Positions 16,670 to 56,709 of a DNA stretch of 64,000 bases are shown here, one piece after another. The stretch is taken from the NCBI GenBank assembly GCA_026397015.1, contig JAPLVR010000003.1:160001-224000 (forward strand). Reading direction: 5' to 3'. The stretch is from Candidatus Iainarchaeum sp. GTDB taxonomy: Archaea > Iainarchaeota > Iainarchaeia > Iainarchaeales > JAAZKV01. Below the pieces are notes generated by a model. It saw only the letters and a list, made by a program, of their open reading frames with translations. It had not been told where the DNA came from and made no database searches. Position numbers and translations under genes: made by a program. The stretch's first letter is position 1; each line of letters begins with the position of its first letter.

Positions 16670-16822
16670 TGGGGCATGGGGGGATTGAACCCCCGCCTGA
16701 CGCTTGTTCTCGCCTTTCGCCAGCCGCTACAACGCTACTGCAAGTAGCGCATCAGCGTAAATCGTTGTACACGGGCGAAACCGTGTCCCGAAGCGCCGAT
16801 CCTACCACTAGACTAATGCCCC
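16670..16822 (-). tRNA. tRNA-Pro(CGG) with an 82-nt intron at 37/38 (16705-16786)
   Basis: Exon 1 GGGGCATTAGTCTAGTGGTAGGATCGGCGCTTCGGG; exon 2 AGCGTCAGGCGGGGGTTCAATCCCCCCATGCCCCA; relaxed BHB. Confidence 0.9.
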
Positions 16823-44391: not shown

Positions 44392-44504
44392 TTTTGGGCG
44401 AAAGGCCTATCTATTAACAGTGTATATTTTAACAATAAAAAAAAGAAAAAGCAAAACCTTTAAATACAACCTCGATACACAAAATAATATTGGTTGCGAT
44501 TTCG

Positions 44505-47500
44505 ATGCGAAGACAAGTTTTGTTCTTATTTATGATTCTTCTTTCGGCGACTGTTTTTGCGGACTACTGTGTTAACAGGACTGGACCCGGTTATCTTGTG
44601 GGTTGCGGTGTGCTAGGAGTACAAAGCGGGTTTTCAACCTGCATTTATAACACCGACGCCGCCATGACTAAAATTAAGACTGTATTGAATTATACTGGAC
44701 CGAACTGCGGAGTAAGAGTTACTTGTTACAATATTGGCAGTGGCGCTAGTGCTGGTCTGCAAGTTTGTGCGGGATATGATACTGGTTGTTATGCGCCAGG
44801 CGCAGGGTCGTGCGTTTGCAGCCCGAATAGCCAATTTGCCCCTGAAACATGTTCAAATGGTTTTACCTATAAAACTTGTAACGGTAATGGTGACGGTTAT
44901 TCACAGGCGAACTGCCAGCGGATTGGCGGTAACTGCAGCGGTGGAGACATATTTTATACATCCAGGCTTAACACATCCTGCCCCCCAATAAACGGGCAAT
45001 GTGTTCAAGACGTTTATGGCGCCCTAAATGGCCTGGGATACTGGGAACAATCCTCAGGGGCAAGGGCTTACTGCGATACTGTGAATTATCATGGCCTTCA
45101 GGTGGCACAGGCATGCGTTAAAACAGATGGTTCATGTATCCCAAAGGTCTGTACAGCGAATGCGTATGAGACGAGGGTGTGCACCAACAACAAGGGATTC
45201 CAATGGAGACAATGCAACGGATCTGGAACAGGATACAACGCCGACTGGTCAGCCTGCATAACCATCCCGGGAGGAAACTGCACCACAACAACCGGCGACC
45301 AATTCTACACACTAAGAGCAAACACCACCTGCACCCAATCAGGACTAGCAGACGGATCATCATGCAGCCAAAACTACACTAACCAATTAAACTCACTAGG
45401 ATACAGCGGACCATACACAGGAACAAGAGTGTATTGTGAAAGCGGGTCATATGCAGGTTTTACAGCGGGAGAGGTGTGCGTAAAAACAGATGCAGCCTGC
45501 AACCCACCAATCTGCACAGCAAACGCATACGAAGCAAAAGTATGCGCCAACAACAAAGGATTCCAATACAGAAAATGCAACGCAAACGGAACAGGATACG
45601 AACCAGACTGGCAACCATGCACAGCACTGCCTGGAGGGGATTGTAAAACAATAACCGGGGATTTATTTTATACATCAAGACTGGAAGGCAAAAACTGCTC
45701 CCAATACGGGTTCGCAGGACAGACTGGATACTCGGCATGCGTACAAAGCATTAACAGAAGTGTTTTGGACGCAGTAGGATATACGGGACCATACATCGGA
45801 GCAAGAGCATACTGCGACGATGAAACATACCAAGGCGCAACTGCAGCAGAAGCATGCGTAAAAACAGATTCTTCTTGCGGAGCACCGTGCACAGTGGGGC
45901 AAATAGAAGCACAAACCTGTGACAATGACAATGGATACAAGTACAGAACATGCAACTCAACAGGAACGGCATGGAACGACTGGACCACATGCGCACCGCT
46001 ACCAGGAACAAACTGCGGAGCAGGAACAACCAAAATATTCTACAAAGCATTCCTCAACAAAACATGTGCGGAAGTCGCCCAGGGAAGAACAAATGTCTGT
46101 ATACAAGACGTATTCCAAATAGCGTGGAATAATGGGTACAGGGGCCTGGCAACGGGGGCAAAGGTATATTGTGATGATTACAGGACATCAAGCTTATACG
46201 GGGCAGGATTCTGCGTAAAGGTGGCTACGGAATGCGACCAGTCAGTCTGCACACCCGGAAAATACGAGGCAAGGGAATGCATAAACAAGAGGGCGGATAC
46301 CAAAATGCCAAGCGGATATCAATACAGGCAATGCAACACAACAGGGCAAGCATGGGGCGACTGGTCAACATGCGCACCAATACCGGGAATAAACTGCGGA
46401 ACCGGAATCACAAAAATATTCTACTACCCGAAACTCAACGTTACGTGTGCAGGGGTCGGGATACCGACAAGCGGACTATGCATACAAACAGTACTCCAAC
46501 AAGCAAAAGCACTCGGATACACCGGACCAGAAACAGGCGCAAGAGCATATTGTGATAATTACAGAACCGAAGATATATTCGGTGCGGGAGCATGCGTAAG
46601 AACGGACACAGGCTGCAATACCGGCTGCATATGCACCGACCAATACGACCCTGTTTGCGGAACAGACGGAAAAACTTATCCTAATGAATGCGCCGCGAGA
46701 TGCGCGAAAATAGCGGTCGCGTATGAAGGCGAATGCAAAGAAAACTGCGCAAAGGAAGGGGAAGGAATCTGCAACACATGCACACCGGGAAGCGGACCAA
46801 CGGAATGCTGCACCGGGCTGACAAAAATAACGCCCGCAAGTAAGCTAAATGATGATTGCACTTTGAAAAATATAGTCGGCGGACAATCATCAGTCTGCAC
46901 CCATTGTGGAGACGACATTTGCGGAACCGGAGAAAACAAATGCAACTGTCCACAGGATTGCAATCCCATTAAATGCGAAACAAGTAAAGATTGTTTAAGG
47001 GGTTGCATAGGGCCGAAAGCGACTTACGGTTCCTGCACGAACGGGCAATGTGTATATACTAGATGTGAAACGGATGGCAGTGGCATTGACAGATGTGCTG
47101 CAGACACCGCACCGCCAACGTGCGACAAAAGATGCGACGCGGACTGCGAAACCAACGCGGACTGCATGGTTACTTGCGCCCAAAATTTATGCGCGATTGG
47201 CGAAACCAATTGTGCAGAATGCCCTGAATACACCTGCAACAGAGAATCCTGCGAGTGTGAGCCGGTAGTAGTACCTGTACCGCGGTTTAATTTGACAGTG
47301 CATACTGGCTGGAATATTTTCTCGATACCCGGAGCATTGAGCCTACTGAGCAATAATTGCGATTCAAGCAGATTTAGAATTTACGAATACACCCCCTCTT
47401 CAATACCTTGGTTTGTTCCTGTAAGCAACGTTGAAATAGGAAAGGCATATTTACTATATTACCCTCTGGCAGATTGTTCGGTGAGAGGAACCATAACAGA

Positions 47501-47780
47501 GGCAATCAGTTCAAGCGAATTGCCGGCTGTCAGAACAGGCTGGAATTTCATACCTGTTCTTGTTGATATGATTGGAATGAAGGTGAGCGATCTTGTACCT
47601 GATTGTGGAGCCGTTAGGGCGTACTTCTACGATGCCGAAGCAGTTGGATTCGTTGACATAACTAATACTATTTTAACTTCAAGTGATTTAGGCCAAGGAT
47701 TCGGATTGTTTGCAATGAATGGCTGCACGGTTACAACACCATCGGAACCTGGCTTCCCTGCATTACCGGAGGCTGACTAA
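44505..47780 (+). CDS. Secreted Cys-rich repeat protein with a Kazal domain
   Basis: Signal peptide; five ~120-aa repeats; CTDQYDPVCGTDGKTYPNEC; C-terminal GWN repeats. Confidence 0.8.
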   Translation: MRRQVLFLFMILLSATVFADYCVNRTGPGYLVGCGVLGVQSGFSTCIYNTDAAMTKIKTVLNYTGPNCGVRVTCYNIGSGASAGLQVCAGYDTGCYAPGAGSCVCSPNSQFAPETCSNGFTYKTCNGNGDGYSQANCQRIGGNCSGGDIFYTSRLNTSCPPINGQCVQDVYGALNGLGYWEQSSGARAYCDTVNYHGLQVAQACVKTDGSCIPKVCTANAYETRVCTNNKGFQWRQCNGSGTGYNADWSACITIPGGNCTTTTGDQFYTLRANTTCTQSGLADGSSCSQNYTNQLNSLGYSGPYTGTRVYCESGSYAGFTAGEVCVKTDAACNPPICTANAYEAKVCANNKGFQYRKCNANGTGYEPDWQPCTALPGGDCKTITGDLFYTSRLEGKNCSQYGFAGQTGYSACVQSINRSVLDAVGYTGPYIGARAYCDDETYQGATAAEACVKTDSSCGAPCTVGQIEAQTCDNDNGYKYRTCNSTGTAWNDWTTCAPLPGTNCGAGTTKIFYKAFLNKTCAEVAQGRTNVCIQDVFQIAWNNGYRGLATGAKVYCDDYRTSSLYGAGFCVKVATECDQSVCTPGKYEARECINKRADTKMPSGYQYRQCNTTGQAWGDWSTCAPIPGINCGTGITKIFYYPKLNVTCAGVGIPTSGLCIQTVLQQAKALGYTGPETGARAYCDNYRTEDIFGAGACVRTDTGCNTGCICTDQYDPVCGTDGKTYPNECAARCAKIAVAYEGECKENCAKEGEGICNTCTPGSGPTECCTGLTKITPASKLNDDCTLKNIVGGQSSVCTHCGDDICGTGENKCNCPQDCNPIKCETSKDCLRGCIGPKATYGSCTNGQCVYTRCETDGSGIDRCAADTAPPTCDKRCDADCETNADCMVTCAQNLCAIGETNCAECPEYTCNRESCECEPVVVPVPRFNLTVHTGWNIFSIPGALSLLSNNCDSSRFRIYEYTPSSIPWFVPVSNVEIGKAYLLYYPLADCSVRGTITEAISSSELPAVRTGWNFIPVLVDMIGMKVSDLVPDCGAVRAYFYDAEAVGFVDITNTILTSSDLGQGFGLFAMNGCTVTTPSEPGFPALPEAD

Positions 47781-49704: not shown

Positions 49705-49746
49705 AAAAACAATGAAACAGCGCCTCCCAAAAAGTAGTGGAAAGCG
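49705..49746 (-). terminator. Hairpin plus T-rich tract between the uORF and leuA
   Basis: CGCTTTCCA-(8 nt)-TGGGAGGCG-CTGTTTCATTGTTTTT on the minus strand. Confidence 0.5.
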
Positions 49747-49747
49747 G

Positions 49748-49849
49748 TTAACCCAGAAGCAAGAGCAAGTAAGCGAGAACTGTTCCGAGAACGAAGAGGC
49801 CTACAGCAGATGAAAAATCGCCTAAAAAACTTATTCCTGTTTGCCTCAT
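49748..49849 (-). promoter_or_regulatory. Leu-rich leader peptide uORF (33 aa, not in the ORF track)
   Basis: MRQTGISFLGDFSSAVGLFVLGTVLAYLLLLLG; BRE/TATA-like AAGAAACCTTTTAAAA about 35-50 nt upstream. Confidence 0.6.
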
Positions 49850-50078
49850 AAAAATCTCTCTTTCCCTATTATGCGCTTCCCCCTTTTAAAAGGTTTCTTG
49901 TTTGGATACTGAAACAAAAAATACATCCAAAAAGGGTTTTCTTGCGTAAAAAAAGGCGGAAAAACTGAAAAAATTACAAACCAAAGAAATGCCAAAAATT
50001 GCATGCCAAAAAAAGAGAACTGAAAAAACCGTGCGCCAAAGAAATACAAATAAAAGGGAGTTAGGGCATAATTAATCA

Positions 50079-52185: not shown

Positions 52186-55100
52186 ATGATCAATTTGGAA
52201 TTTTTCAAAAAAAATCTGATCTGTTTCGCAGTTCTATTTTTCGCTTCGATTATTCCGGGCGTTTGCGGTGCCGCAGTGCAAATTGACATAAACGGGCAGT
52301 ATTATCTCGGCGGAGCGGTGACAATATCCGGAACAGTTGCTCCGGCGGCTGCAAATGATTTGAATATTTATCTTACCAACGCGTCAAGCGGCGCGGTATT
52401 TGACAGCAACACTGTGGCTGCCGATGCAAACGGGGCGTATTCCATAACATACAATTATTTGAGCGCTGGCGACTATAACGGGCTGGTAACAGATGCAAAT
52501 TCAAGCGCGACCAATAGATTTTACCTAAAAATAACCAATTATGCAAGCATAGACATCAATTTTGTTGGAAGTATGCCGCCTTTAAATATCGGCCAGGCAT
52601 TGGTTGCGAATTTTACTTTGAGGGATTATAATAATGCAGTGGTAACAAGTGATTACAACATCGCATTAAAACTTGTTGATTCGGATGGAACCGTTGTCAA
52701 GGATCAAAACAACTATGTTCCAAAATCAGGCGGGGCAAACAGAACTGATGATTATAACTTCGGCGCTCTTCCCACTCCAGGAACATATACAATAATAGTG
52801 GACAACGGAGTAACTGGGTTTAATGTTCCAGTGATAGCGTACAACTTATTTGTTAATTCGTTCAATTCCAGCACCGGCGACCCCCAAAAGATATTTGCCG
52901 CGGGACAGGACGCGAATGTAAAGGTGTTCATGAGCAACACAAGCGGAACCCCGATAACAAGCGGAACTATTTCAGGAACAATACAAGCGCCAAGTAGCGT
53001 TACACAATCCCCACTAACTTTCACCCCATACGGCGGCTATTTCATGGCGAATACGGGCGCATTAAGCACGCAAGGAGAATATACAATAAGAGTTAGTGCG
53101 AGCGCACTCGGTTACAGCCAAAACCAGGAATTAAAACTTAAAATCCAAAGCTACTCGATGTTATTGCAGCCGAAAAAGAATGAAAGCGCCGGAAAGAAAG
53201 AGAGGATGAAGGGAGCATACAGCACTTCTTCGCAGGCGATTCTTGAACTGAGCATAACCGACTTGAACACAAACATGGCTCTCGCAGGATTGGATTTGAA
53301 TAGCGCCTGCAATAAAAACAAATTATCGCTTACTGTTTACAAGGCGGGTTCGACTGTTGGAACAAGCGTTACTTTCGATGTGAATAATGTGCCGGATAAG
53401 ACATGCGATTTGAATTTTGTTACGCCTTCATCAACAGGAGAATATCGTTACAAACTGGTCGGCACGGACATGAATGTGGCAAATACTGTGCAGGATTTGG
53501 CAACATCAACCGGATTGAAAGTGCAGAATCAGATGGTGTTCTTCGACGCGGTTGATCCATCTGCATATGCGCAGGATTCGAGCAATTCGTGGAAATTCAC
53601 TTTCTACAAAGATGAAAACATCGGGTTTGTTGCAAATGTAATTGATTTGAATGTGAGTGATGATGCGGATGTTTCTGCAGTAAGTAAGGCAACAATAATG
53701 CAGAACGGCCAGCGCATAACAATAACCAACACTGTTGATAAAAATTATCTTGATTATAACGCGGAGTCGCATGTGCTGTTAATGCTCGGAAGCGCACTCA
53801 CTGATAATAATGTTTCCGCAGGGTTCGTTCCGATAGAATTCACGGTAGATGTAAATTCAAATAATGACGCGATGGATGCGAATAGCATTACTGCATTCGG
53901 CGCGTTCAAATACAAAATAATGAATATTTCTTCGATGCCGGCGGATGAAAACGGCGGCTCAAAATCAACAATGTTCGGACCGCCGGTATTCCACTCAGAT
54001 ACCGAAGGAGTTTACCTTCAGGTTTCGGTTACGAATGCGGGCGGAACTGCGATAAAATATGCCAATGTTGAGCTTTACTCTCTTAGAAATGTAGATGACT
54101 GGAATGAACTGAGCGTTGCCCCGATAAACGCGATTTCGGATAACAATAATCTTATTACGAGCAGCGCCGGAACGGCACATCTTCACTTGGGCACACTCTC
54201 TTCAGGGATTTACTTCGGGCAGGTGAAAGTAACAAACGGAAGCACGATTGATTATGGGGATTTCTTTTTGATGGTGAAAAGTTACATTGTTAATGCACAG
54301 CCATTGACAGTGGAAAACGGCCAGTGCATGTTCATGAATTCAATCGGACAGAACAGCGATTTCAACATGGTGATAATGGCGATGAACCCTGCGCTGGGAA
54401 TGCCTGTTAATGATTATGTTCCGGATGAAAACGGCACGAAAGTGTTCCTCATGAGCATGGGGGAAGAATTCAAGGAACCGACAATATACGATGTTACTTT
54501 GAGCAGCCCGTTTGATTTCAATTGTACGGGAATGATGGGTCCTCCGGGCGAAGTGCAGACATTCAAAGCAATGACAGTTCACCCGAACGGCGATTCTAAC
54601 TGGCAGGCGGGAAATTACAGGGTGCTTGTGAAAGGAAGTTCTGCTGAGCTTGGAGCGGAAGCCGGAGACGGCTTTTTCAGGGTGCAACCATTTAAATTCA
54701 GTTTAATGCCGTTGGCAATGACGGGCATGGGCGGCGGAGACCAAAAGATGCTTAATGCGACACCGGGTTCGGCTTTTGATTTCAATGTCATATCGGACAA
54801 GAGCATTACTCTGAGAGCAATTCTTGTTGATGAAAAAACACAGCAGGATGTTAACAGCAATATTAATTTTGTTAACAACAGCAACACAGTCAATGCAAAT
54901 GAACTCACAACCGTTTCGGTTCTTATCCCGTCAAATATCCCTTTATCTGAATACCCGCTGATAGTTTTCGGTGATGACACTTCGGGCAACCAGGCGGAGC
55001 AGGATTTATTCCTAAGAATGAGCCTTTTCAATTTGGTTGTGCCAAGCGGTATTGGAAATCAAAATCTGCAGTATCAGCAAAGCAATACGGGGGCATATGA

Positions 55101-56709
55101 CACAAACATTTTGGATGATGCTACAAATGGAAACCTGCGCCATTCAAGCGGCCCTGGCGACAGCGGGCATTATTGTGATGGAAATGTTACTGTCGGCGAC
55201 ATCAACTATAACAGATGGATTATGGCCGGCACGGATTGGGCCAGAAATGATTTGAATCATTTAATGCTTGTTAACACAATCGATCAAAATGTTTGGATTG
55301 ATTATGACAATGACTGCAATTTTGTTCTGGATGATGCGGACAGCAACAGACATGTTGGGGATACAAACATAGGGTCAATGACTGATGGAAACGCCATGCT
55401 CGTAACGGACATCACCTCAATGGCATTAACATACATGAAAAAGCCGTTTGATTTTAATAATTCAAGCAGGATGCAGGGAACTTTTATCGGGCAATATCCT
55501 GTTGATGAAAATATAGGCGTGCCGATAATAATTAAGAATTTGGACGGCACCACTACTGCGGATATTAACGTAACAATAAACAGGGCGATGCTACTGCCTT
55601 CCTTTGGAATGGGAATGCCACAGGAAACAACCGGGTGGACGGCGTGGCAGGGCACAACCGACGCCGACGGCTTTGCAAGGGCAATCTTGAATGTGTCAAG
55701 ACCCGGAACGTACATGCTTGAAATAAAAGCGACCAATACTGCGGGAACGTCACAAATATTCAAGCCGTGGGAAGGAATGGTAGTTGAAGCGAAGAAGTAC
55801 AAAACTGAAATGTTCCTGCAGAACCAAATAGGAGATATTACAATTGATTTCAACAATGTGCTGGCTGGGAGCGGCGTATTTATTGAAGATGACGAAAGCA
55901 GCGGTCCCGGAGATAATGGCGACGGTTTAGACCAGACATGGTACGATGCAAATTACGGGCTGTTTGATGAAAGCGCAAGAGACTTTGATTTGGATAAGGA
56001 TGGCGCCAAAGACAAAAACTTTTATTTCATAAAACTGAACGATGCGTTCCACACGGCCAATTCTGGAATGGACGCAAATATTCTGGTTGACGATGACACT
56101 AATTTTTGCAACATACTGTACAGAGGGCCAGACAACAATAGAGATGATTGCGACCAAAATGTTTTGGGCGAAGTCGGATTGAATGAAGGCTGGTTTGACA
56201 ACACAAGCGGGCTCTTCCTGTGCCCGTACAGCAACGCCCAAGGTTCAATGCAAAACACTTCATGCGGAAACAATGAAGCGGTTTATGCGATTTCAGAGAA
56301 CGACACAAATGTCAATGATAATGATGCGATAATAATCAACAGAACCACCTGGAGGGCGCTTGATAATACAGGAAACAATTGGGGGTTATGGATGATAAAG
56401 GACGGCATAAACAATGCCGCAGGTTCAAGCACAAACACATGGACTATATTCAAAGATCTTCAGGGAGTAAAACTTAATTCTTCAGGCACGATGAGCGCAA
56501 AGCTTTTCAGGACAAGCGCCAGGCCACAGATGAACCAGCAAAATACGATGATTCCTATGCCAGGAACGTATCCGGGAACGATAACCGGCGGCATAGGAAA
56601 AATTAATTACGGCAATCTGCCGGATTCAAATTATTCAATGGCGGTCGATGTAAACATCAATAATGATTTGCAAACGCAATACGAAAACTTTGAAATAAGG
56701 TCGTCATAA
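52186..56709 (+). CDS. Large secreted surface/S-layer-like glycoprotein with Ig-like domains
   Basis: Signal peptide, many N-x-S/T sequons, repeated D-x-N motifs, G.Y.(V/I) beta strands. Confidence 0.75.
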   Translation: MINLEFFKKNLICFAVLFFASIIPGVCGAAVQIDINGQYYLGGAVTISGTVAPAAANDLNIYLTNASSGAVFDSNTVAADANGAYSITYNYLSAGDYNGLVTDANSSATNRFYLKITNYASIDINFVGSMPPLNIGQALVANFTLRDYNNAVVTSDYNIALKLVDSDGTVVKDQNNYVPKSGGANRTDDYNFGALPTPGTYTIIVDNGVTGFNVPVIAYNLFVNSFNSSTGDPQKIFAAGQDANVKVFMSNTSGTPITSGTISGTIQAPSSVTQSPLTFTPYGGYFMANTGALSTQGEYTIRVSASALGYSQNQELKLKIQSYSMLLQPKKNESAGKKERMKGAYSTSSQAILELSITDLNTNMALAGLDLNSACNKNKLSLTVYKAGSTVGTSVTFDVNNVPDKTCDLNFVTPSSTGEYRYKLVGTDMNVANTVQDLATSTGLKVQNQMVFFDAVDPSAYAQDSSNSWKFTFYKDENIGFVANVIDLNVSDDADVSAVSKATIMQNGQRITITNTVDKNYLDYNAESHVLLMLGSALTDNNVSAGFVPIEFTVDVNSNNDAMDANSITAFGAFKYKIMNISSMPADENGGSKSTMFGPPVFHSDTEGVYLQVSVTNAGGTAIKYANVELYSLRNVDDWNELSVAPINAISDNNNLITSSAGTAHLHLGTLSSGIYFGQVKVTNGSTIDYGDFFLMVKSYIVNAQPLTVENGQCMFMNSIGQNSDFNMVIMAMNPALGMPVNDYVPDENGTKVFLMSMGEEFKEPTIYDVTLSSPFDFNCTGMMGPPGEVQTFKAMTVHPNGDSNWQAGNYRVLVKGSSAELGAEAGDGFFRVQPFKFSLMPLAMTGMGGGDQKMLNATPGSAFDFNVISDKSITLRAILVDEKTQQDVNSNINFVNNSNTVNANELTTVSVLIPSNIPLSEYPLIVFGDDTSGNQAEQDLFLRMSLFNLVVPSGIGNQNLQYQQSNTGAYDTNILDDATNGNLRHSSGPGDSGHYCDGNVTVGDINYNRWIMAGTDWARNDLNHLMLVNTIDQNVWIDYDNDCNFVLDDADSNRHVGDTNIGSMTDGNAMLVTDITSMALTYMKKPFDFNNSSRMQGTFIGQYPVDENIGVPIIIKNLDGTTTADINVTINRAMLLPSFGMGMPQETTGWTAWQGTTDADGFARAILNVSRPGTYMLEIKATNTAGTSQIFKPWEGMVVEAKKYKTEMFLQNQIGDITIDFNNVLAGSGVFIEDDESSGPGDNGDGLDQTWYDANYGLFDESARDFDLDKDGAKDKNFYFIKLNDAFHTANSGMDANILVDDDTNFCNILYRGPDNNRDDCDQNVLGEVGLNEGWFDNTSGLFLCPYSNAQGSMQNTSCGNNEAVYAISENDTNVNDNDAIIINRTTWRALDNTGNNWGLWMIKDGINNAAGSSTNTWTIFKDLQGVKLNSSGTMSAKLFRTSARPQMNQQNTMIPMPGTYPGTITGGIGKINYGNLPDSNYSMAVDVNINNDLQTQYENFEIRSS

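Follow-up and report, generated by a model that had tools for sequence, protein, structure and literature searches.

We analysed a window of 64,000 nt of DNA from Candidatus Iainarchaeum sp. (positions 160001-224000 of contig C5 in our genome G000, which is about 0.9 Mb in size and 85% complete). On the minus strand of this window lies leuA, the gene for 2-isopropylmalate synthase, and ahead of it stands a short upstream open reading frame (uORF) that ends in a run of leucine codons. The first-pass annotation, made from the letters of the window, had described a TATA-like box, this uORF, a hairpin, a T tract and leuA in this order, and had interpreted them as a leucine-sensing leader-peptide attenuator operating with archaeal promoter signals. 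All of these elements are present on the minus strand where it had placed them (Table 1). The genome is archaeal: it carries two TATA-binding protein (TBP) domains on the same contig and an archaeal small-subunit ribosomal RNA, and a radical-SAM gene for wyosine formation lies in the window.

Table 1 Features of the leuA leader region, in window coordinates.
Feature	Position	Strand	Remarks
TATA-like box CCTTTTAAAAGG	49893-49882	minus	33-44 nt ahead of the ATG of the uORF; presumed promoter for leader and leuA
Leader uORF, 33 codons plus TAA, peptide MRQTGISFLGDFSSAVGLFVLGTVLAYLLLLLG	49849-49748	minus	33 amino acids (aa), 9 Leu
Five consecutive Leu codons, TTG CTC TTG CTT CTG	49768-49754	minus	presumed sensing codons
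Hairpin P1, CGCTTTCCA/TGGGAGGCG	49746-49721	minus	9 pairs (5 G-C, 2 G-U), 8-nt loop
T-rich tail CTGTTTCATTGTTTTT	49720-49705	minus	T3 and T5; candidate U-tract termination signal
TATA-like TTTATATTAAATA	49707-49695	minus	overlaps the T tract; possible, unconserved internal promoter
Purine-rich spacer	49679-49619	minus	five G(2-5)A(3-6) repeats, period ~13 nt
leuA, 2-isopropylmalate synthase	49615-48101	minus	504 aa, GTG start; with C-terminal regulatory part

The nine Leu residues claimed for the 33-codon uORF, five of them consecutive, were borne out. The Leu run is followed by one Gly codon and then by the stop codon TAA (49750-49748), giving the tail LLLLLG-stop, and a single unpaired C separates this stop from the hairpin, hereafter P1. 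The 9-bp hairpin that had been placed 1 nt after the stop was found as well, with its first base 2 nt past the stop codon, a loop that ends in a T5 run and a predicted stability of -10.7 to -11.4 kcal/mol; by pattern scan it is terminator-like. As a whole, the 250-nt leader is no more stable than shuffled sequences (z +1.19). The gap of about 90 nt that had been given ahead of leuA agrees with the GTG start, which lies 90 nt past the T-rich tail.

The window LeuA protein was searched in 61 relatives and then in the whole order (196 genomes, 50 of them with a match at E <= 1e-80), and the upstream DNA was examined at 49 leuA-type loci, namely L001-L023 and 26 stretches of a second set. A uORF of 21-40 codons ending in a Leu or Leu/Val run was found at 48 of the 49 loci, and the run lies 0-2 codons before the stop across the loci, with one exception. 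All 23 loci of the first set carry such a uORF, the one of L019 (MHHNNIQTNSAINTVQTLALLLLL) being recognised by eye. The second set has it at 25 of 26 loci, 22 by criterion and three by eye: L051, with three Leu in the last nine residues; L056, which starts with TTG; and L058, which starts with GTG and has its stop codon moved four codons into the hairpin. The remaining locus, L060, lies behind ilvE inside an operon whose start is outside the sequence examined. One further locus whose gene is cut by a contig end (L024) and the fragments of genome G049 stand outside all counts, and L019 stands outside the statistics for 47 leaders given below. At L006 the uORF (MQAGKNSPQKITFSQNKRLISSLSLLNLLLLK) heads a whole operon of a 121-aa ORF, ilvE, leuA and leuB. 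The 121-aa ORF of this operon (L006:3940-4305, minus strand, in genome G040) sits between the Leu leader and ilvE-leuA-leuB.

Such tails are rare by chance. Among the 5476 ATG-started ORFs of 15-60 aa in G000, 75 have at least four Leu in the last nine residues, which corresponds to 0.019 expected per 450 nt of one strand, or about 0.02 per locus. Counted as Leu runs within the last nine residues, at least four occur in four ORFs and at least five in two, the window uORF among them. The Leu tail is also specific to this gene type. A paralogue that is 30-37% identical and occurs in many of the same genomes had a Leu-tail uORF at none of six loci, neither of the two nearest bacterial leuA loci (48-51% identity) had a Leu leader, and a search of the class and phylum (215 species genomes) returned no carrier of leader-type leuA outside the order. 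Between groups, the N-terminal parts of the uORFs cannot be aligned; the tail and its distance to the stop codon are kept.

The leaders matched no described family in the databases searched. None of the 47 leader peptides scored above cut-off in Pfam-A, NCBIfam gave no match to the window peptide, and 10 of 10 leader peptides, the window's included, were absent from a collection of 15 billion proteins. Rfam 15 gave no match at the window locus at E <= 10 and none in 20 leader loci at E <= 0.1; on 20 further leader loci, at gathering score, it reported tRNA alone. Four of 22 long loci have a tRNA-Leu gene no more than 1.5 kb from the leader-leuA(-ilvE) unit (L007:2865-2951, anticodon TAG; L013:3645-3726, L015:374-457 and L018:366-449, anticodon GAG), and two of the four are co-directional, just past ilvE.

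The codons of the tail follow the products of the operon. Over the last 12 residues of the 47 leaders, Leu makes up 56%, Val 14%, Ala 9%, Ile 3% and Phe 0.4%, and all six Leu codons are used; the N-terminal parts are polar and rich in Lys, Ser, Asn and Thr. The first-pass annotation had held that free replacement of Leu by Ile, Val or Phe would speak against a sensor. This is not what the leaders show, Ile and Phe being scarce and Val tracking the presence of ilvB. Where ilvB directly follows leuA (19 loci), at least two Val stand in the last 12 residues in 19 of 19 (mean 3.0), whereas at the 23 loci with no ilvB after leuA this holds for three (L012, L021 and L022; mean 0.39); five of the 47 loci could not be scored. 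In the window, where leuA has no ilvB behind it, the terminal run of the leader is free of Val. Other genes found downstream of leuA in the relatives are leuC, leuB and ilvE. Bacterial leaders are built with a similar logic, leu leaders carrying Leu codons only and ilv leaders being multivalent. Frameshifting in the Leu leader was considered and ruled out by closed alternative frames past the Leu run (the +1 frame has a median length of one codon).

Some of the LeuA proteins behind these leaders are short. Those of family f1 (L007-L023) have about 380-417 aa, and the ones of L007 and L013 consist of HMGL-like and HCS_D2 domains only, with no C-terminal regulatory part. Since the part that would carry feedback inhibition is missing from these short proteins, the leader may be their only Leu-responsive control.

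The hairpin is conserved in position and in pairing rather than in sequence. The best hairpin of the f20/f23-like group begins between -1 and +3 nt, counted from the final base of the stop codon, in 30 of 30 leaders, and over all groups the first paired base is within -3 to +3 of the stop in 41 of 46. At this place the f20/f23-like leaders have at least a dozen distinct helix sequences, for example GCACTCC/GGAGTGC, ACACCC/GGGTGT, GCGCCCC/GGGGCGC, GCCATCTC/GAGATG.GC and GATACCTCC/GGGGGGTATC. RNAalifold gave 11 consensus pairs for the g3 group, seven of them with compensatory changes. A covariance-model alignment of P1 with 31 matches had a covariation score that was reached by none of 500 shuffles and exceeded all slid controls, on an alignment that is poor, fitted to the structure and includes four spurious rows (L017, L014 and plus-strand L054 and L057). 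MAFFT alignments of the hairpin had ragged 3' arms, and we place more weight on the g3 RNAalifold fold and on the list of distinct helices. The pattern that the first-pass annotation had named as support among relatives, a conserved Leu run and a covarying hairpin beside an otherwise divergent peptide, was found.

Masked consensus folds were then compared for different ribosome positions. P1 is present when the RNA is free or when a ribosome sits six codons before the stop, and is gone once the ribosome is on the stop codon. These folds suggest that in all groups P1 would exist while the ribosome is held in the Leu run or absent, and would be prevented by a ribosome at the stop, because its 5' arm begins within about 3 nt of that codon.

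Alternative pairings of the leader vary between groups. For the 1:2 pairing, in which the last codons bind the 5' arm of P1, cognate combinations averaged -7.2 kcal/mol and non-cognate ones -5.6 kcal/mol (median rank 11 of 46). The pairing is clear in f20 (CTAGGA/TCCTAG, with the compensatory CTAGAG/CTCTAG in L055) and in g5 (CTTCTTGC with GCAAGAGG). In g5 there is further a 3:4-type helix with T6 behind it, directly ahead of the Shine-Dalgarno (SD) sequence of leuA; the f23-like leaders have a long P2 helix. In the latter, the P1 loop GACTTCTG pairs with a nearly invariant downstream CAGAAGTCNTTAGA, and extended forms of this pairing overlap the 3' arm of P1; it may be an alternative helix or a pseudoknot. 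The segment CAGAAGTCNTTAGA itself was seen about 45-70 nt past the uORF stop in f20- and f23-like leaders (L005, L002, L038, L039 and L044-L062); as it is conserved in sequence rather than by covariation, it is possibly a protein site. The pairing of the Leu codons with the 3' arm of P1 (1:3), which the first-pass annotation had put forward, is feasible in the window at -9.3 kcal/mol; among 30 leaders it showed no specificity.

The promoter signals belong to the leader. A TTTAWATA-like box (at least seven of eight matches) stands upstream of the uORF in 31 of 47 leaders, mostly at -28 to -30 from the ATG; the same scan places the window's box at -41. Because of this spacing, the leader mRNAs are probably leaderless or nearly so in many relatives, though not clearly in the window. 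An 8/8 TATA box within 70 nt upstream of leuA was found in none of the 47 leaders, and the best matches there are scattered. The first-pass annotation had raised the TTTATAT box of the window as a start site of leuA's own. Its TTTATATTAAATA is not conserved in related f20-type leaders, and there is no conserved box before leuA in general, which speaks against that proposal; a local promoter might still operate at this one locus. A palindromic motif, TGTAYWWWTTGTTACA, lies 20-45 nt upstream of the leader TATA box in L012-L019 (g3 genomes). It is a candidate transcription-factor site and may indicate a second, protein-based control of the g3 operons.

T runs follow the uORF in most leaders. Within 90 nt past its stop, a run of at least five T occurs in 28 of 47 and one of at least four in 40 of 47, the longer runs being distributed as 10 of 11 in g3, six of six in g5 together with L058, eight of 14 in f20-like and four of 16 in f23-like leaders. 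Such runs are also how genes end in G000, where at least five T follow 51% of long ORFs and 25% of mid-gene positions. The 36 nt before these T runs have a mean folding energy of -3.5 kcal/mol, compared with -4.1 kcal/mol inside genes, and reach -8 kcal/mol or lower in 9% and 10%, respectively. The ordinary terminators of this genome are hairpin-less T runs. This makes P1 ahead of a T run something special rather than a normal terminator component. For other archaea, the portion consulted of one report describes hairpin-less termination at U tracts, with aCPSF1 cooperating with the U tract (PMC8716108). G000 has an ORF of 643 aa with a beta-CASP domain, a candidate aCPSF1/FttA.

The comparative results for the uORF, the hairpin and the TATA box support the interpretation of the first-pass annotation, and we regard the leader as probably a ribosome-mediated leader-peptide attenuator, the sensing part of the leuA operon, working on archaeal expression signals. 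The components of this reading are not equally firm. From its conservation, the uORF is very likely a cis-acting Leu/Val sensor of some kind. Premature transcription termination is favoured, with reserve, as the step that would be controlled. The polarity in which formed P1 means read-through is put forward tentatively, as slightly short of an even chance.

According to this model, the TATA-box promoter would yield a transcript starting at, or a few bases before, the very short ORF, which would be translated. As the last 5-12 codons specify Leu, or Leu and Val where ilvB is co-transcribed, the speed of the first ribosome would report the supply of charged tRNA-Leu (and tRNA-Val). A ribosome that reaches the stop would cover the 5' arm and leave P1 unformed, and a ribosome held in the Leu run would allow P1 to form. 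When Leu is plentiful and P1 absent, the polymerase would end the transcript at the U tracts of the spacer, probably with the aid of an aCPSF1/FttA-type factor that needs free nascent RNA; such aid is probable because the terminators of this organism are hairpin-less T runs. In some subgroups the alternative 3:4 hairpin may terminate instead. When Leu is scarce and P1 has formed, the nascent RNA would be folded, termination suppressed and leuA transcribed. We assign P1 to the ON state because a biosynthetic operon must be on under starvation, and because all stall positions within the 5-12-codon run then give the same outcome. L058, with its stop codon moved into the hairpin, fits this polarity.

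Several observations weigh against this reading. A T run of at least five is missing from the first 90 nt of 19 of the 47 leaders, and one of at least four from seven, mostly f23-like. Compared with dinucleotide shuffles, P1 has a median z of -1.2, with 15 of 46 below -2, and on the poor model alignment only 71.7% of its cells pair. The 1:2 pairing is weak in f23-like leaders and in the window (-3.1 kcal/mol, rank 45 of 46). No pair of terminator and antiterminator helices is common to every group, and an alternative helix did not emerge from the masked folds. Because the loci share their ancestry, the counts overstate their independence. Neither leuB, leuC, ilvB nor ilvE was found in the 85%-complete G000, which leaves a Leu switch without evident purpose there. 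Finally, P1 abutting a T run resembles a bacterial terminator, and one that would form under starvation would have the wrong polarity for biosynthesis. A hairpin acting as anti-terminator of factor-assisted U-tract termination would reconcile the polarity.

The missing pathway raises the question of what the leader does in G000 itself. No Iso_dh or aconitase family match was found in the 85%-complete genome, and tblastn of the relatives' ilvB, leuB, leuC and ilvE against it (E <= 1e-5) gave no match; leuA is the sole gene of the branched-chain pathway found. Its protein had been called bacterial-type on sequence motifs, and it passes two bacterial-type models, NCBIfam NF002086 with 677.7 bits (curated cut-off 532) and TIGR00973 leuA_bact with 632.5 bits (cut-off 598.7, covering residues 3-498), and scores below the curated cut-off of the LEU1_arch model, an assignment that stands on family scores only. 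Its feature-based neighbours are bacterial LeuA clusters with LeuA_dimer, which we take as a lead only. The nearest LeuA proteins (66-72% identical) are found in family f20, and the family-mates of G000 carry the short LeuA type (49-59% identical). The same-genus genome G001 is without this leuA and holds only a paralogue of 33% identity, and the window's hairpin and tail resemble f20 leaders such as L041. These relationships suggest that G000 acquired leuA and its leader together by lateral transfer.

On these grounds the uORF and hairpin might have arrived with leuA from a relative in another family and now regulate nothing in G000, and the loss from the window of the 1:2 pairing typical of f20 leaders points the same way. 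We consider this unlikely. leuA is intact, with a product that scores above the curated cut-offs, and so is each element of the leader (uORF, Leu run, hairpin and T tracts). The genome is 85% complete, so that pathway genes may simply be unassembled. Such a history would moreover concern the present function in G000 and not the identity of the element. With no other pathway gene found, the switch in G000 may be a relic, or it may serve some other use of LeuA.

Control might alternatively act on translation: the transcript would always reach leuA, and a stalled ribosome would remodel the mRNA and expose the ribosome-binding site of leuA. A near-leaderless uORF, as suggested by the TATA spacing, with a terminal cognate tract resembles the mycobacterial leaderless short ORFs (sORFs) as far as the consulted part of that report describes them (10.1101/834739). 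The pyrimidine-rich Leu run is broadly complementary to the purine-rich spacer and the SD, the whole-leader fold of the window pairs the Leu run with GGGAAA repeats beside the leuA start, and the 19 leaders lacking a T run of at least five would also be accommodated. As a conserved device, however, pairing of the Leu run with the leuA initiation region was rejected, since it showed no cognate specificity (-9.56 versus -9.13 kcal/mol; median rank 23 of 46). Spacers are between 36 and 264 nt long and unconserved, the conserved P1 adjoins the uORF stop and not the leuA start, and in g3 and g5 stretches of T7-T9 lie between uORF and leuA that the polymerase must pass. Translational control of this kind therefore seems improbable to us, and attenuation of transcription by the leader remains our preferred account.

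As for the spacer, the last purine repeat in the window doubles as the SD region of leuA, and TRF found a period of 13-14 with 3.1-3.7 copies. Similar GGRAAAA repeats were seen by eye in the spacers of L003, L041, L050 and L051. In a broad sense the repeats are complementary both to the 5' arm of P1 and to the pyrimidine-rich Leu run, and they might act as a protein-binding array, as standby sites for ribosomes or as decoys. Translational coupling through a second spacer ORF (MREIIRENNAEKIIGENLWGK, 49682-49617, ending 1 nt before the GTG of leuA) was also considered and rejected as not conserved: comparable ORFs occur in 21 of 47 spacers only, mostly with non-ATG starts.

The first-pass annotation had itself cautioned that the last 19 residues of the peptide could be a transmembrane helix. 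The uORF would then encode a hydrophobic microprotein as a gene in its own right, served by a separate promoter and by P1 and the T run as terminator, and leuA would use another promoter. The window taken alone gives some reason for this, as its last 19 residues are hydrophobic (a run of eight by strict count, 19 if Thr and Tyr are allowed), a hairpin and T tract right after a stop look like the terminator of a small gene, and the TATA-like TTTATATTAAATA follows. The relatives make it very unlikely. A strictly hydrophobic run of at least 18 residues occurs in none of the 47 peptides (median 10), and some, such as MSSKYAYKTVSKDFAKPKTVLEKLLLLLR, carry charges up to the last six residues, with only LLLLL after a charged N-terminal part. 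The tails are composed of Leu and Val instead of the usual membrane mix, and their Val content follows the content of the operon. Furthermore, the uORF is strictly linked to leuA-type genes and occurs at none of the six paralogue loci, no promoter box is conserved before leuA, and the ordinary terminators of G000 have no hairpin. A chance origin of the uORF in AT-rich intergenic DNA, where short ORFs abound (the 5476 counted in G000), can be dismissed given 48 of 49 loci against about 0.02 expected per locus and the conservation of both the reading frame and the position of the stop relative to the hairpin.

The first-pass annotation had also proposed a search of other amino-acid operons for cognate-codon uORFs, and this brought to light Trp-codon mini-ORFs at trpE. 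The gene is present in 59 of the 196 genomes of the order, and 20 upstream stretches were examined (L063-L082). At 11 of these 20 loci there is a mini-ORF with an invariant GAY-YBA-CTT-TGG motif, a motif that occurs neither in the G000 genome nor in 395 kb of other loci. Encoded peptides include MQGDSLWLQ, MNSGDLLWLH and MARRDLLWSNFQ, with the patterns ..GD[SLR]LW.. or ..RRDLLW... By eye, at the loci with a tRNA-Trp gene named below, the segment past the stop of the mini-ORF pairs with its first codons, with compensatory changes (GCAAGGC/GCCTTGC, AAAAGGC/GCCTTTT, ATGGCTAG/CTAGCCAT).

At the CTT-TGG sites, the +1 frame is open for at least 29 codons in 11 of 12 cases, compared with only 5-10 codons for the +2 frame. 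The +1 frame ends in two to three Trp codons at five trpE loci. It is trpE itself in L064, L065 and L073, all of which are without tRNA-Trp, and in L065 none of the first ~77 codons of trpE is ATG, GTG or TTG. This arrangement suggests a +1 frameshift at CUU-UGG upon Trp starvation, and we propose that the shifted frame would lead either into trpE or, where a tRNA-Trp gene is co-located, into a second frame rich in Trp that lies before this gene. Known cases of +1 frameshifting with which it may be compared are prfB and Ty1. A tRNA-Trp(CCA) gene was called by ARAGORN between Trp leader and trpE in seven of the 20 loci (L067-L069, L071, L072, L076 and L079), and the cognate tRNA-Trp seems to be part of the 5' region of the trpE operon. 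An intron-bearing tRNA-Trp copy was recognised by eye before trpE in L074.

The trpE loci show putative cognate-codon leader ORFs to be a general habit of this lineage. The scan of G000 for other uORFs with cognate runs gave nothing convincing, and hisG, which follows hisI, had no His-run ORF in the 500 nt examined. An archaeal 'ribulon', through which a phylum-level lineage of small genomes would control its amino-acid biosynthesis by ribosome-based sensors, would unite Leu and Leu/Val leaders, their hairpin opposing hairpin-independent, factor-assisted termination at U tracts, with a Trp sensor based on +1 frameshifting; we regard it as less likely than not.

Elsewhere in the window, two large ORFs on the plus strand flank the leuA region, one of 1096 aa (44490-47780) that is cysteine-rich with internal repeats and one of 1507 aa (52186-56709). 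Rfam reported a tRNA match of 43.1 bits over 153 nt at 16670-16822 on the minus strand, where ARAGORN made no call; it is probably an intron-bearing tRNA.

The best-known leader-peptide attenuators are those of enterobacteria: leuL, the multivalent ilvBN and ilvGMEDA leaders, trpL and pheL. As in those systems, the archaeal leader has a short ORF between the promoter and the first biosynthetic gene, a run of cognate codons matched to the operon's products, a hairpin whose formation is predicted to depend on the position of the lead ribosome, and U tracts before the structural gene. Unlike them, it occurs in an archaeal host, behind a TATA-box promoter, with uORFs that are probably near-leaderless. 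The codon run always closes the peptide, no more than about 3 nt separate the stop from the hairpin, there is no universal set of 1:2, 2:3 and 3:4 helices, and the host's terminators have no hairpin, so that P1 probably acts in a different way. The archaeal leaders have no sequence similarity to any leader family of Rfam or Pfam.

Factor-dependent attenuation in bacteria is known from Rho, at the tna operon and at riboswitches. The model proposed here resembles the Rho and aCPSF1/FttA cases in that free nascent RNA would allow termination at U tracts, and a ribosome or a structure would prevent it. The literature searched contained no case of aCPSF1/FttA termination regulated by a leader peptide, and we infer this link.

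Two bacterial systems with a translational mode of action are also close. For the actinobacterial LEU element, the part of the report consulted describes a base stem in which Leu codons pair with the SD box of leuA, and proposes translational control (PMC1262725). As far as that account goes, the LEU element likewise has a Leu-run uORF before leuA and a possible pseudoknot, here between the f23-like P1 loop GACTTCTG and the downstream CAGAAGTC. It differs in that pairing of the Leu run with the SD has no cognate specificity in our leaders, the conserved helix lies beside the uORF stop, and there is no sequence relation. For the polycysteine leaderless sORFs of mycobacteria (the 'Cys ribulon'), the consulted portion of the source states that a stalled ribosome frees a sequestered ribosome-binding site (10.1101/834739). 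On that description, the archaeal leaders share with them an unannotated, probably leaderless sORF with a cognate tract as first cistron, and several operons may follow one principle, as the Trp mini-ORFs of the same archaea suggest. Unlike the Cys sORFs, our leaders yielded no duplex hiding the ribosome-binding site, and they belong to another domain of life.

Full-text searches for amino-acid leader-peptide attenuation in Archaea returned bacterial cases only, with most subscription journals outside their coverage, so that an earlier report is possible. One source, in the portion consulted and citing reviews, makes the general statement that uORFs are also active in archaea (PMC10219788). 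With the leuA leaders, attenuation by leader peptides probably extends to a further domain of life, and its termination chemistry there is probably a different one.

In bacteria, the textbook proof of transcription-translation coupling is leader-peptide attenuation. Archaea have a polymerase of eukaryotic type, whose termination at U tracts involves no hairpin; for this reason, a conserved codon-specific leader in archaea would show that coupling is used for regulation in this domain as well. If the model is true, this would be the first transcription attenuation by a translating ribosome in Archaea, reached by a solution that differs from the bacterial one. The leaders would provide a natural and compact test object for how a ribosome or an RNA hairpin modulates archaeal termination. 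Being unannotated and outside Rfam, they would also form new families for annotation. They would further bear on whether this design was invented twice or moved together with bacterial-type genes, and on how genome-reduced, probably host-dependent archaea decide when to make amino acids.

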